DNA of 64,000 nt from Octopus vulgaris (taxonomy: Eukaryota). Shown in pieces: positions 7,776-57,780 of this stretch. Both the position numbers and the translations under genes were made by a program. Positions within the stretch are counted from its first letter, which is position 1; each line of letters opens with the position of its first letter. Location of the stretch: positions 5,394,001 through 5,458,000 of the forward strand of contig OX597826.1 of the NCBI GenBank assembly GCA_951406725.2, read 5' to 3'. The notes under the pieces are model-generated. The model worked only from the letters and a program-made list of their open reading frames with translations, was not told the origin of the DNA and did not search any database.

Positions 7776-8178
7776 AGGCGTAGGAGTGGCTGTGTGGTAA
7801 GTTGCTTGCTTACCAACCACATGGTTCCGGGTTCAGTCCCGCTGCGTGACACCTTGGGCAAGTGTCTTCTACTATAGCGTCGGGCCGGTCAAAGCCTTCT
7901 GAGTGGATTTGGTAAACGGAAACTGAAAGAAGCTCGTCGTATATATGTATATATGTATGTGTGTGTATATGTTTGTGTGTCTGTCTTTGTCCCCCCAACA
8001 TCGGTTGACAACCGATGCTATTGTGTTTACGTCCCCGTAAATTAGCGTTTCGGCAATAAGAGATGATAGAATAAGTACTAGGCTTACAAAGAATAAGTCC
8101 TGGGGTCGATTTGCTCGACTAAATGACGGTGCTCCAGCACGGCCACAGTCAAATAGCTGAAACAAATAAAAGAGTAAA
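7776..8178 (+). mobile_element. Full-length SINE family 2 (tRNA-like head, internal TA/TG microsatellite, AAAGAGT tail)
   Basis: Head AGGCGTAGGAGTGGCTGTGTGGTAAG...GGGTTCAGTCCC. Homologous copies at 14.3, 14.7-15.6, 43.8, 48.0 and 63.7 kb. Confidence 0.9.
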
Positions 8179-8194
8179 TCAATCAATGTTAGGG

Positions 8195-8540: not shown

Positions 8541-8663
8541 GTTTTTCTACTATTTAGCCAATGCGAAGTCTTAAGGCGATTCTTTAAGTCGCTCGCACTT
8601 CAACGTAGTTGATATGAAGTATTATGGTGTGACAAAAGTTTTGCAATAATTGCATAGCTACTA

Positions 8664-9019
8664 AGGCGGCGAGCTGGCAGAAACGTTAGCACGCCGGGTG
8701 AAATGCTTAGCAGTATTTCGTCTGTCTTTACGTTCTGAGTTCAAATTCCGCCGAAGTCGACTTTGCCTTTCATCCTTTCGGGGTCAATAAATTAAGTACC
8801 AGTTACGCACTGGGGTCGATGTAATCGACTCAATACCTTTGTCTGTCATTGTTTGTCCCCGCTATGTTTAACCCCTTGTGGGCAGTAAAGAAATAGATAT
8901 TTCGTCTGTCATTACGTTTTAAGATATAATTCCTCCGACTTTCGGAGTCGATAAATTAAGTAGCAGTTGCCCTCTCCATCAAAAATTTCGGGCCTTTTGC
9001 CTAGAGTAGAAAAGAATAT
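8664..9019 (+). mobile_element. SINE family 3, with partial internal duplication
   Basis: Head GGCGGCGAGCTGGCAGAAACG, B box GAGTTCAAATTCC. TSD TTGCATAGCTACTA (8650-8663) / TTGCATAGGTACTA (9020-9033). Confidence 0.9.
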
Positions 9020-9790: not shown

Positions 9791-10153
9791 TACCTGGTTG
9801 CCTTTGTTGTATCTTGAATAAAGCAAATACGTTAACAAACTATTTTCAGAACGTTTGACTCAATATATTTTCTTTTAATGACAAAATCTCGCTTGTCCAG
9901 TTTCGGTCTTCCATTATGTACATGGAAAGAGAAAATAGTGTGTGTAAACTCGGAATTGTTTGGTTGGTGTACCCTTGGTATTCCGCTGGTCTGATGACGT
10001 AACTTTCTTTAATTGTATGAATTTGCAAATATACAATTGAAATGTCGAATGCTGAATATACGCATAATGCTTCCATGCTGAAATTAATACTATATTAAAA
10101 AAGATTACAATACAGCCGCAATCCCATTAAGATCAACTCGTTACATGAATATA

Positions 10154-10605
10154 TATTTCTTTACTGCCCACAAGGGTCTAAACATAGAGGGGACAAACAA
10201 GGACAAACAAAGGGATTAAGTCGATTACATCGGCCCCAGTGCGAAAATTGTACTTTATTTATCGACCCCGAAAGGATGAAAGGCAAAGTCGACGTCGGCG
10301 GAATTTGAACTCAGAATGTAACGCCTCAAACTTCAATTCCTATGACTTTGTACCAAATACCTATTTCTTTACTACCCCCAAGGGGCTAAACACAGAGAGG
10401 ACAAACAAGGACAGACAAACGGATTAAGTCGATTAAATCGACCACAGTGCGTAACTGGTACTTATTTAATCGACCCCGAAAGGATGAAAGGCAAAGTTGA
10501 ACTCAGTTGAACTCAAAGTTGAATTTGAACTCAGAACGTAACGACAGACGAAAAACCGCTAAGCATTTCGCCCGGCGCGCCAACGCTTCTGCCAGCTCGC
10601 CGTCT
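10154..10605 (-). mobile_element. Dimeric SINE family 3 insertion with 16-bp TSD
   Basis: Two tandem body units. Perfect TSD TCGTTACATGAATATA at 10138-10153 and 10606-10621. Confidence 0.9.
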
Positions 10606-10707
10606 TCGTTACATGAATATAATTCTCCTCTCAAACTTTAGCCTTTATGATTGCATATATGTGTATGTGTGTTTGTGTATGTGCATGTCTGTATGTAGGT
10701 GCGAGTG

Positions 10708-14726: not shown

Positions 14727-14899
14727 AGTGATTGTGTGGTAAGTAGATTGCTTACCAACTTCATGTTTCCGGGTTCAGTCCCACTGCGTAGCACTTTGCA
14801 CAAGTGTCTTCTACTATAGCCTCACGCCGACCAAAGCCTTGTGAGCGGATTTGGTGGACGGAAACTGAAAGAAGCCCGTCAAATATATGTTTATATATG

Positions 14900-14936
<37 letters not shown>

Positions 14937-15319
14937 TAATTTCTTTACTCTTTTCCTTGCTTTAGTCATTTGACTGCGGCCATGCTGGAGCAACGACTTT
15001 AGTCGAGCAAATCGACCGCAGGACTTACTCTTTGTAAGCCTGGTACTTTTTCTATCGGTCTATTTTGCCGAACCGCTAAGTTACGGGGACGTAAGCATAC
15101 CGCCAACGTTTGTCAACCGATGTTTGGGGCGTGGGGACACAAACACCTAAGCACATACACACACTCACATATATACATATATACGACAGGTTTCTTTCAG
15201 TTTCCATCTACCAAATCCATTCACAAGGATTTAGTGGGCCCAAGATGCCTCGCAGCGGGAATGAACCCGGTACCATGTGGTTGGTAAGCAAGCTACTTAC
15301 CACACAGCCACTTCTGCAC

Positions 15320-15358
<39 letters not shown>

Positions 15359-15560
15359 TTGCGTGTATGTGCTTATCTTCCATCATCGCTTGAGAACCGC
15401 TGTTCGTATGTTTACGTCCCCGTAACTTAGCGGTTCGGCAAAGAGACACCGATAGAATGAGTACTAGGCTTACATAGAATACGTCCTGGTGCGTATTTGT
15501 TCGATCAAAGGCGATGCTTCGTCATAGCCACTGTCAAATGACTGAAACAAATAAAAATAG
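14727..15560 (+). mobile_element. SINE family 2 copy split at its internal microsatellite by a nested antisense copy
   Basis: Head 14727-14880 (+) and tail about 15375-15560 (+). Confidence 0.8.
14943..15319 (-). mobile_element. SINE family 2 copy nested within another copy
   Basis: Reverse complement of the 7776-8178 family, running from the tail to the CACACAGCCAC head. Confidence 0.85.
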
Positions 15561-16774: not shown

Positions 16775-16810
<36 letters not shown>

Positions 16811-17088
16811 TTAATAAGGGTGAGAGAATTAGATACTAATTTAATAGTATATTTATTCCACACCAAGTGGCCTAGTGCTCCGAGAAACCTGGATTATTAT
16901 AATATTTTATAACATATTATAATATTTTTACAAAATAAATATAAGAGAGTGGTCACTATATTGCTCACTCTAGCACCAGTTAATCCAAAAGGTTTCAACC
17001 ACGAAAATACATGTTTCCCATGAAAGTCAGTACGATTGTTAGCTCACACGGACAGGGCAAATAAAAAATAACAAAAATACAGATTATT

Positions 17089-17165
17089 TTGGGACAATTG
17101 TTTCGCTATTAATGAATTAAATGTAATTTTACTTACAAAAAATCCATTTGTAGCTCGTCAGCCAA
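17089..17165 (-). ncRNA. Type I hammerhead ribozyme, intact consensus core
   Basis: Minus strand reads TTGG CTGACGA GCTA...TAGC GAAA CAATTG TC CCAA. Palindromic stem III, GUC cleavage triplet. Confidence 0.85.
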
Positions 17166-17734
17166 GACTATCTGGATGAAATCCACTCAATCACACGCCA
17201 GATTTTACCATAACGATAAATACGCGTGTGGTTCAATTGATTACATCCGACGTTATAATTCAAATGCCCCAACCAACAGCGCGCCAAACTTTCACGGAAA
17301 ACAAATACAGCATTTAGAAATAAATGCAGCATAATTATAATTAATTAATAAGGGTGAGAGAATTAGATACTAATTTAATAGTATATTTATTCCACACCAA
17401 GTGGCCTAGTGCTCCGAGAAACCTGGATTATTATAATATTTTATAACATATTATAATATTTTTACAAAATAAATATAAGAGAGTGGTCACTATATTGCTC
17501 ACTCTAGCACCAGTTAATCCAAAAGGTTTCAACCACGAAAATACATGTTTCCCATGAAAGTCAGTACGATTGTTAGCTCACACGGACAGGGCAAATAAAA
17601 AATAACAAAAATAACAAAAAATGTTGGTTGGGGCATTTGAATTATAACGTCGGATGTAATCAATTGAACCACACGCGTATTTATCGTTATGGTAAAATCT
17701 GGCGTGTGATTGAGTGGATTTCATCCAGATAGTC

Positions 17735-17811
17735 TTGGCTGACGAGCTACAAATGGATTTTTTGTAAGTAAAATTACATTTAATTCATTAATAGCGAAAC
17801 AATTGTCCCAA
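17735..17811 (+). ncRNA. Type I hammerhead ribozyme, intact core (inverted copy)
   Basis: TTGG 17735-38, CTGACGA 17739-45, GCTA/TAGC, GAAA 17796-99, CAATTG, TC 17806-07, CCAA. Confidence 0.85.
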
Positions 17812-17961
17812 AATAATCTGTATTTTTGTTATTTTTTATTTGCCCTGTCCGTGTGAGCTAACAATCGTACTGACTTTCATGGGAAACATGTATTTTCGTG
17901 GTTGAAACCTTTTGGATTAACTGGTGCTTGAGTGAGCAATATAGTGACCACTCTCTTATAT

Positions 17962-18022
<61 letters not shown>

Positions 18023-18028
<6 letters not shown>

Positions 18029-18230
18029 TAATCCAAACATGAAAACACAAAGGGGAAACACAACGCGAGGATGTGGAACAAATATAGTATTATTGGACGC
18101 TCATGAAGGAAAGGAAGAAGGAGGGTTTAACGTTTCGAGCTGAGATCTTCGTCAGAAACATAGGAAAAGGAAAGATCCAGAGAAGGGAAGACGGAGGAAA
18201 AAAAATCGCCAACGGTACACACGCGGTCAC
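18023..18230 (-). mobile_element. (TA)n-adjacent repeat with minimal hammerhead motif (same family as 25213-25440)
   Basis: Colinear similarity with 25213-25422. Both copies start immediately after a (TA)n run. Confidence 0.75.
18125..18159 (-). ncRNA. Minimal hammerhead motif (Penelope-type GAAACGUU)
   Basis: Minus strand reads GTTT CTGACGA A GATC TCA GCTC GAAA CG TT AAAC. Stem I is GTTT/AAAC. Stem II has one mismatch. Confidence 0.6.
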
Positions 18231-18241
18231 ACACACACACG

Positions 18242-19669: not shown

Positions 19670-19842
19670 TTATTTCTTCATTGCCCACAAGGGGCTAAAG
19701 TAGACAGATTAAGTCGATTAGATCGACCCCAGAGAGTAACTGGTACTTAATTTATCGATATGATGAAAGGCAAAGTCGAAATTTGAACTCAGAACGTAGC
19801 GGCAGACGAAATACCGCTCATCATTTGGCCCGGCTTGCTAAA
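19670..19842 (-). mobile_element. Partial SINE family 3 copy inside (TATC)n
   Basis: GCCCACAAGGGGCTAAA...GATGAAAGGCAAAGTCG..TTTGAACTCAGAACGTA. Confidence 0.8.
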
Positions 19843-19876
19843 GTTTCTATCTATCTATATATCTATCTATCTATCA

Positions 19877-43753: not shown

Positions 43754-44090
43754 TTACTCTCTCTTTTACTCTTTTACTTGTTTCAGTCATTTGACTGCGG
43801 CCATGCTGGAGCACCACATTTAGTCGAGCAAATCGACCCCGGGACTTATTCTTTGTAAACACAGTACTTATCATATCGGTCTCTTTTGCCGAACCACTAA
43901 GTGACGGGGACGTAAACACACCAGCATCGGTTGTCAAGCAATGCTAGGGGGACAAACACACACACATACACACATATATATATGGTCGGCCCGGGGCTAT
44001 AGTAGACACTTGCCCAAGATTCCACGCAGTGGGACTGAACCCGGAACCATGTGGTTGGTTAGCAAGCTACTTACCACACAGCCACTCCTG
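43754..44090 (-). mobile_element. SINE family 2 copy (internal deletion)
   Basis: Near-identical to 48003-48423. Confidence 0.9.
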
Positions 44091-44284
44091 CTTATATATT
44101 ATATTATTTATGAATATGTGTATACATCTATACATACGCACATATGCCTTGCCTATGTGTGTATATGGTCATGCGTTTCCGTCTTCTTTTATGTATGTGT
44201 ATATATGTGTGTGTGCTTGTCTGTCCGTGTTACCTATGTACCTCTCTGTCTATTTATCAGTTTACTTACAATTCCATTTACCTA

Positions 44285-46911: not shown

Positions 46912-48002
46912 CGTATTTATATAGCTGTGTGTTTGTGTGTACTTTAGGATGTATTTATTGAAAAAATAGGTTGTAGTTACAATATCATATTACAAGATTT
47001 CCCTTCGGAATGTAACGTCACAAAATTATCTTTATATAAAATTTTATAACAAATACTTAAGACACGCACAGTAAGGCACTGTCACACACACACACATGCA
47101 CATAGTGACGCGTGTGCACAAAACACATATACTACACGCACATGTATATGTATATATATATATATACATATATGTATGTGTGAGTGTGTGTGTGTGTGTG
47201 TGTATACATACATATAAGTATTTGTAAGTATCGCTATGTATATTTGTATGTATAAGTAACAGTCATAAACTAAAAGATATGTATAAAACGTATGCTTGTT
47301 TTCCCATCACTATTTAAGCGCAAGAAGATCTATCGTATGTAATCACGATAGGGGATCTGTATGAAATTATTTTCATACATATATTATGGGAGTATTATGT
47401 TCTTATCGAAAGCTTTCTTAGTTACTTTGTTTTTGTCTGCTATCATGCTAAATAAATAAAAGTCGCTTCTGATAAACGAGAAATGATCAAAGATGTTTTA
47501 TACACTCACACACACGCATATATATACTGACTACCAGCAAATGAAAATACTAAGTATAAGGAAAGAGTGTATATAGTGTTAATAAGAAAAACCACAAGAA
47601 TTACATAAATAGGAAGTAAAAGACGAACATGCATCCATTGATATTAAAGGAAGGCATATGAGGAGGTTTAGCAATTGTGGTATAATCACGATGTGTATAT
47701 ATAATAAACGTGTTTAATGCTATTGTTACGTTAAAAATATCTTAACCTTGGGTGTAACGACCGAAGTGTTCCCGTCACCACCCCTATAGATATATTCGGT
47801 AAATTCTATGTTAAGCTGTTTGTAAATTTCAACGCCCTTTTAATCTGGTTGATATAAAAATAACAGAATATTTGATACATACACTAACTATTAATAACCT
47901 AATGTTAAAAATAGAAATATTTGATAAATAATCTACTGAAAACCTAATGCTAAATTTTAATACAAATACTACAAAAATGTCTGCACGTTTCTCTGAGTGA
48001 GT

Positions 48003-48423
48003 ACTCTCTTTACTCTTTACTCTTTTACTTGTTTCAGTCATTTGACTGCGGCCATGCTGGAGCACCACCTTTAGTCGAGAAAATCGATCCCAGGACTTAT
48101 TCTATGTAAGCCCAGTACTTATTCTATCGGTCTCTTTTGCCGAACCGCTAAGTGACGGGGACGTAAATACACCAGCATCGGTTGTCAAGCAATGCTAGGG
48201 GGACAAACACAAACACACAAACACACACACATACACACACATATATATATACATATATACAACATGCTTCTTTCAGTTTCCGTCTACCAAATCCACTCAC
48301 AAGGCATTGGTCGGCCCGGGGCTATAGTAGAAGACACTTGCCCAAGATGCCACGCAGTGGGACTGAACCCTGAACCATGTGGTTGGTTAGCAAACTACTT
48401 ACCACACAGCCACTCCTGCGCCT
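48003..48423 (-). mobile_element. Full-length SINE family 2 copy
   Basis: Reverse complement of the 7776-8178 family. Confidence 0.92.
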
Positions 48424-57215: not shown

Positions 57216-57235
57216 TGATTCTACTTCCTTTTGCC

Positions 57236-57780
57236 AAACGGATTATGTCGATTACATCAACCCCAATGCGTAACTGGTACTTAATTTATCGACCCCGAAA
57301 GGATGAAAGGCAAAGTCGACCTCGGCAGAATATGAATTCAGAAATTGAAGACAGACGAAATACATATTTCTTTACTAGCCATAAGGGGCTAAACACTGAG
57401 AGGACAAAGAAGGATAGACAAACGGACTAAGTTGATTACATCGACCCCAGTGCGTAACTGGTACTTATTTCATCGACCACGAAAGGATGAAAGGCAAAGT
57501 CGACCTCGGCGGAATTTGAATTCAGAAATTGAAGACAGACGAAATACATATTTCTTTACTAGCCACAAGGGGCTAAACACTGAGAGAACAAAGAAGGACA
57601 GACAAACGGATTAAGTTGATTACATCGACCCCAGTACGTAACTGGTACTTATTTCATCGACCCCGAAAGGATGAAAGGTTAATCAACCTCGGCGGAATTT
57701 GAACTCAGAACGTAACGGTAGACGAAATACGGCTGCGCATTTCGTCCGGCGTGCTAACGATTCTGCCAGCTCGCTGCCTT
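57236..57780 (-). mobile_element. SINE family 3 with a 184-bp body unit in triplicate
   Basis: GATTACATC at 57250, 57434 and 57618. A single head ends at 57780. Confidence 0.9.

Follow-up and report, generated by a model that had tools for sequence, protein, structure and literature searches.

The window analysed here, a 64,000-nucleotide stretch of Octopus vulgaris DNA, contains a real and young insertion of an abundant hammerhead repeat without an open reading frame (ORF), and the inserted element is probably a non-autonomous Penelope-like element (PLE), retrozyme-like and mobilized by a borrowed Penelope reverse transcriptase-endonuclease. The layout of the insertion is itself already known, being the published signature of PLE insertions, and it does not show that the RNA was cut by its ribozyme; the case that the layout records cleavage is weak.

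Architecture of the Insertion

The element spans 16802-17968 and comprises, in minus-strand order, (i) an inverted 347-nt piece (17968-17622), (ii) a filler that separates this copy from the next piece, (iii) a partial unit (17613-17336), and (iv) a full unit (17335-16802), as collected in Table 1. The initial annotation had described this arrangement of near-identical copies ending in (TA)n, and had placed the start of the partial unit at the equivalent of 17079, 13 nt past the predicted ribozyme cut; the repeat coordinates confirm both points. It had passed over the 8-nt filler and the presence of (TA)n at either side. The direct repeat has a period of 534, with 16802-17079 identical to 17336-17613 (278 nt, 0 mismatches, 100% identity), and the inverted repeat relates 16932-17278 to 17622-17968 over 347 nt with 1 mismatch, at 16971/17929. 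The (TA)n sequence flanks the element on both sides, the right array extending over 17957-18024 and being perfect from 17969; the left junction has TATA in common with the target, and no such overlap occurs at the right junction. On either outer side the insertion terminates in an element 3' end that touches (TA)n, and the two 5'-truncated ends meet mid-element. At its 3' end the inverted arm falls 130 nt short of the direct arm, and the two arms overlap by 148 nt.

Table 1. Features of the insertion and of the flanking target runs, in window coordinates
Feature	Position	Strand	Remarks
Left (TA)14 target run	16778..16805		Last 4 nt (TATA, 16802-16805) also match the unit end
Full 534-nt non-coding unit	16802..17335	-	Predicted highly self-paired; 3' end adjoins (TA)n
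Predicted type I hammerhead	17080..17174	-	Motif and helix inspection; cut 17093/17092
5'-truncated partial unit, 278 nt	17336..17613	-	Identical to 16802-17079; pseudo-LTR-like direct repeat; without hammerhead
8-nt filler linking the two 5'-truncated ends	17614..17621		First 7 nt extend a local A-rich 9-mer repeat (probable slip-back)
Inverted 347-nt copy of 17278-16932	17622..17968	+	Second intact hammerhead 17726-17820; 3' end adjoins right (TA)n
Right (TA)n target run	17969..18024		Perfect TA array

The 534-nt unit has a GC content of 33%. The longest ATG frame in 16802-17613 comprises 54 codons, and a Pfam search of 8/8 frames returned no family above the cut-off and no match to a reverse transcriptase (RT) or GIY-YIG domain; the element is not an autonomous PLE. 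Within the 64-kb window, no further copy of the unit was found besides low-complexity matches. A 10-nt AT-only tandem array (3.2 copies), folding as a hairpin, is present at 16897-16928 and 17431-17462, just 3' of the zone where the inverted arm ends.

Neighboring Repeats

The window is eukaryote-like in character and rich in microsatellites. The right flank of the element (18026-18231) and the segment 25214-25421 are copies of an older dispersed repeat, 82% alike, which adjoins a (TA)n run at both places, so that the element sits in a TA run beside an older repeat. A separate repeat family, tandemly repeated at 57235-57710 with a period of 184 nt (2.6 copies, 92% matches), has dispersed relatives at 10148-10616, 8660-8938, and 19704-19848; a relaxed scan of 57235-57710, 10148-10616, and 8660-8938 disclosed no hammerhead core. 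A SINE-like dispersed repeat recurs at 7777-8187, 14727-15317, 15359-15556, 43755-44091, and 48002-48422 with 78-95% likeness, two of its copies (14942-15129 and 15359-15556) being inverted. On the minus strand, 18760-18690 displays a tRNA-like head with A-box and B-box-like motifs and is probably a SINE; ARAGORN reported no tRNA gene in this segment.

Predicted Hammerhead and Folding of the Unit

When the two strands of the 64-kb window were scanned for a hammerhead core with a helix II of at least 4 bp, two matches emerged, both inside the element (17161 on the minus strand and 17739 on the plus strand), with the two cores 578 nt apart on opposite strands. The predicted type I hammerhead, called from motif and helix inspection, comprises (i) helix I, formed by 17174-17162 with 17092-17080, in which 11/13 positions pair; (ii) the core at 17161-17155; (iii) a 4-bp helix II carrying a 40-nt hairpin extension; (iv) the GAAA at 17104-17101; and (v) a 2-bp helix III with a palindromic tetraloop (an 8-nt palindrome), the predicted cut falling at 17093/17092. 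The call has no counterpart in the Rfam library, in which the hammerhead families gave 0 matches at the gathering threshold over the 64 kb; at E values up to 10, the segment 16700-18100 gave 9 weak matches, all far under the family thresholds and none of them a hammerhead, and TA repeats drive the four alignments shown among these nine. According to the accessible part of PMC4209133, hammerheads with a short palindromic helix III are of a type that cuts poorly as a monomer. The hammerhead pattern was also matched elsewhere, with 0 hits in viral contigs and 3 in metagenome contigs; the latter were rejected as chance matches, 2/3 lying within long open frames and none resembling the unit beyond the searched motif.

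When the complete unit is folded, the majority of helix I pairs reach a probability of 0.7-0.85 and the outermost pair only 0.12; in a span-limited fold, helix I is not formed. The free-energy minimum is an inactive form in which the core pairs with helix III (-25.3 versus -18.4 kcal/mol for the constrained ribozyme), helices I and II occurring in both the minimum-energy and the constrained hammerhead folds. The monomer is predicted to be highly self-paired, with a z value for the sense strand of -8.4 in the linear fold (30 shuffles) and -9.9 in the circular fold (40 shuffles); the antisense strand reaches -4.9, and the ten control values, obtained with five segments of the window, lie between +1.0 and -4.2. 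The variants found in the family retain the predicted pairs in 10/14 cases versus 8.5 expected, which gives no support for selection on the fold.

The Family in Public Sequencing Runs

The unit belongs to a high-copy, polymorphic family, of which the copy in the window looks recent. Among the matches listed, 20 of 24 runs (12 studies, 5 organism labels) contain half or more of the 51 words sampled from the unit, and none of the runs with unit words is on record as RNA. Contigs from four of the 24 listed runs (X1, X3, X4, and X20) were compared with the unit, yielding 2659, 1254, 760, and 131 contigs, which cover all 30 bins and are mostly 95-100% alike; 23 variant sites are listed for the family in these four runs. 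Their listing of sites with many molecule starts or stops is empty, contigs being unable to reveal such sites. The only listed variant in the hammerhead core is the free position of CUGANGA (17157). No published description of the 534-nt family was found in the literature searched, outside which lie most subscription journals, Repbase, and supplementary lists.

Head-to-tail joints, in which 17333-17335 is followed by 16802-16805, account for seven of the nine rows of the joint table (six from X1 and one from X4). These rows carry 1-3 variant letters and therefore come from other copies, so that the 534-nt period belongs to the family and not only to this locus. Three proposals of the initial annotation bear on this result. 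The search that it had suggested for 534-nt tandems finds such junctions in other copies (X1, X4), and these junctions also support its view that the template was longer than the unit, as a multimer or circle. Its picture of a 534-nt ORF-less, retrozyme-like monomer holds as to the lack of an ORF, the head-to-tail occurrence in other copies, and folding beyond that of shuffled sequences. In X1, identical palindromic letters stand at three unrelated loose ends, presumably a proximity-ligation linker, and X1 joints may be library chimeras; two X1 rows are still among the five joints counted below.

Among 24 of the 198 loose ends, TA runs follow 16803 in X4 and 16922 in X20 (one contig each), matching the zones in which the arms of the present copy terminate (16802 and 16932). 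At 16/16 family variant sites, the inverted arm agrees with the letter of the unit, including two at which most of the X1 depth differs (0.84 and 0.75), which argues that it derives from the same RNA or a sibling transcript and not from a random family member.

Each of the four runs also contains similar loose ends at 17052-17056, and X3 and X20 contain them at 17185-17190 as well; they point to related families that have part of the unit in common and differ elsewhere. In X3, a joint from 17142 to 16935 represents a diverged copy that passes an altered ribozyme region and returns to 16935, and may be either a shorter tandem relative of about 240 nt or a copy ending in the second 3' zone.

Relationship to Penelope-like Elements and Retrozymes

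The assignment to PLEs is based on the match between the layout and published PLE insertions, namely a partial tandem, an adjacent inverted 5'-truncated copy, an extension at one end, and a bias for (TA)n, and on the hammerhead, which is of type I and, like those of PLE repeats, has a short palindromic helix III. The initial annotation had not recognized the layout as a published one. The accessible part of PMC8557442 describes insertions of PLEs as partial tandems truncated at the 5' end, to which an inverted and likewise 5'-truncated copy is often directly attached on the 5' side. One end bears an extension of 30-40 bp, the pseudo-LTRs contain hammerheads, and microsatellites such as (TA)n are favored as targets; the paper also names non-autonomous PLEs with pseudo-LTRs. 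A layout of two direct copies and one inverted copy is also shown in the part of PMC3846280 available. The endonuclease-bearing (EN+) PLEs (Penelope/Poseidon, Neptune, Nematis, and Hydra) and non-autonomous derivatives such as MRC1 have the same pseudo-LTR partial tandem, the adjacent inverted 5'-truncated copy, unequal 3' ends, a microsatellite target, and a hammerhead inside the repeat (PMC8557442, accessible sections). Unlike these, the present element has no RT or GIY-YIG ORF, and its repeat measures 534 nt, not kilobases. [quoted passage not shown]

Experimental work on a PLE protein offers a further comparison. Purified PLE protein cuts and extends both strands at AT-rich DNA, with two internal starts (PMC11167929). 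These starts of Poseidon PAc of Anolis lie 3' of the hammerhead, which fits the two 3' ends observed here; PAc is autonomous, however, and its starts lie close together in an AC-rich stem-loop, whereas those of the present element are AT-rich and 130 nt apart (PMC11167929). In the accessible part of PMC4209133, PLE ribozyme pairs are reported 100-700 bp apart on opposite strands, and circles are proposed as templates for copies of more than unit length.

The element also resembles non-LTR retrozymes: its head-to-tail unit is non-coding and low in GC, is predicted to be highly self-paired, and contains a type I hammerhead. It differs from retrozymes in that (i) the locus lacks two consecutive direct units each with a complete hammerhead, the direct partial unit having no ribozyme, and (ii) a 40-nt helix II extension replaces the small loop. 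Animal retrozymes have been argued to be non-autonomous PLE derivatives of 51-972 bp (bioRxiv 10.64898/2026.07.22.740005); the unit falls within this range, yet exceeds the 150-450 bp given for animal retrozyme units in the accessible part of PMC7229834, where PLEs are considered the likely mobilizer. The model of PLE-mobilized retrozymes is reviewed in PMC6765202 (available part), and Penelope is among the abundant, expanded repeat families of coleoid cephalopods according to the portion of PMC8967140 available.

A Model for the Insertion

In the preferred reading, a borrowed Penelope RT-endonuclease would have nicked both strands of the (TA)n run, and from each 3' end reverse transcription would have started at an AT-rich site within the same or a sibling RNA (16802-16805 and 16932). 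The first cDNA would have extended over 1.5 units (812 nt) of a multimeric or circular template, through an intact ribozyme, to a stop at 17079, the foot of the predicted helix I within an A-rich repeat, where the enzyme may have slipped and added the filler. The second cDNA, of 347 nt, would also have copied a ribozyme that was intact, after which the 3' ends of both cDNAs would have been joined head to head. The stop near the ribozyme would thus reflect stalling, slippage, or chance, and not a cut end. The observation that the outer ends are element 3' ends at (TA)n, with the 5'-truncated ends meeting, fits two cDNAs primed from both target strands, and the span of the first cDNA implies a multimer or a circle as template, the two being indistinguishable from these data. 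No support came from a test of how (TA)n-like the sequence immediately 3' of the ends is (ranks 224, 65, and 193 of 534). In L1 elements, 5' inversions arise by twin priming, the inverted 5' piece being primed from the second target strand; compared with these, the present element has no poly(A) tail, includes a tandem unit, and shows the 148-nt overlap of its arms. Such an overlap is not readily given by simple twin priming on one linear RNA, a point counted against the proposed course.

Ribozyme Cleavage and Alternative Explanations

The initial annotation had read the layout as the record of a ribozyme-made 5' end. This is not supported, both cut sites having been read through intact: the direct arm passes one and the inverted arm another, the ends of the latter lying 186 and 161 nt from the cut. 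A cleaved RNA could nevertheless be accommodated if the template were a linear multimer whose upstream hammerhead had been cut, the cDNA reaching 17092 and then losing 13 nt, with the inverted arm made from a downstream unit or a second RNA; this course we consider unlikely. The closeness of the breakpoint to the cut speaks for it, since a breakpoint within 14 nt has a chance of 0.026 for one look, or 0.077 for three. The conserved hammerhead core, with its sole listed variant at the free position, also favors it, as does the published proposal of cleavage and circles for PLE tandems (PMC4209133, accessible part). Against it, both hammerheads of the insertion were copied uncut, and 0 bases of 17080-17092 are kept. 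If the inverted arm came from an upstream unit of the same RNA, that RNA was uncut there, and a circular template is incompatible with a ribozyme-made 5' end, as a circle has no 5' end. The 13 missing nucleotides coincide exactly with the 3' strand of the predicted helix I, and an A-rich 9-mer repeat, which the filler extends, surrounds the join, so that stalling or slippage fits equally. This helix-foot argument depends on the folding model, 17079 being among the top 4.6% of the 523 positions when the fold is global but at 57% in the span-limited fold, and 17278 ranking in neither. Fold-back priming, one of the two endings that the initial annotation had proposed for reverse transcription, was rejected for want of complementarity, as the A-run would have to pair with GCGCGC at 17279-17284.

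Other copies provide a small sample of breakpoints. In X3, one contig has lost 65 nt of the ribozyme through a joint from 17091 to 17157; given an ambiguity of 1 nt, the joint may be taken to resume exactly at 17092, and could equally be explained by DNA-level loss across a hairpin. Including it, 1/5 downstream-piece starts (P = 0.12) and 2/10 joint ends (P = 0.027) of the five listed joints fall in 17079-17092, an interval chosen after the fact, with 2/5 joints coming from X1 and possibly being library chimeras. For the accumulation of 5' truncation points just 3' of the cut, which the initial annotation had proposed to look for, the counterpart here is the one joint among the five that is readable at the cut (P = 0.12). 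The second joint end in the interval (17079) is of opposite polarity, and the two loose ends at 17086 (2/10 of the "behind" rows shown) continue with hammerhead-like letters and so look like diverged ribozymes, not truncations; both observations weigh against a cleaved template. In the same direction, cleavage was dispensable for the one PLE protein tested in vitro, unprocessed RNA being its main substrate and no RNA reads beginning or ending at the cut (PMC11167929).

Two further explanations dispense with two-strand priming. A lone monomer might have inserted first and been partially duplicated and inverted later at the DNA level, by polymerase template switching or break repair, in keeping with three local, near-identical pieces and a filler that resembles slippage. 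We regard this as very improbable, given that both outer ends are element 3' ends at (TA)n with no duplication of flanking DNA, that other copies show the same head-to-tail junction and the same two zones of ends, and that the layout is the standard PLE product. Still less probable is an assembly artefact from fold-back or chimeric reads or from mis-joined repeat copies. The great abundance of the family would invite such an error, structures of this kind being known to trouble assemblies (PMC8557442, accessible part), and the filler junction is absent from the five joints and from 24 of the 198 loose ends; against this, the mismatch of the inverted arm is private to it and its filler is unique, the right flank does not mirror the left one, and independent runs contain the head-to-tail junction.

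Significance

The value of the finding lies in the family and not in the layout, the family being short, young, and high-copy with little divergence. It allows a direct count of reverse-transcription starts and stops relative to the ribozyme, and it would offer a way to test among invertebrates whether animal retrozymes are non-autonomous PLEs, as has been claimed chiefly on the basis of vertebrates. What the hammerhead does in PLEs is called unclear in the accessible part of PMC8557442, and in vitro PLE work could not tie cleavage to transposition (PMC11167929); no published count of PLE 5' ends relative to the cut site was found in the literature searched, which leaves out most subscription journals. 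A bolder and doubtful reading is that the family represents a young, very abundant, strongly folded 534-nt circular-RNA passenger of a Penelope element, whose genomic copies break and jump preferentially at the hammerhead (the cut site 17092 and the foot of helix I, 17079). If true, the genome would preserve evidence that Penelope-type insertions are shaped in vivo by the cleavage or folding of the ribozyme.
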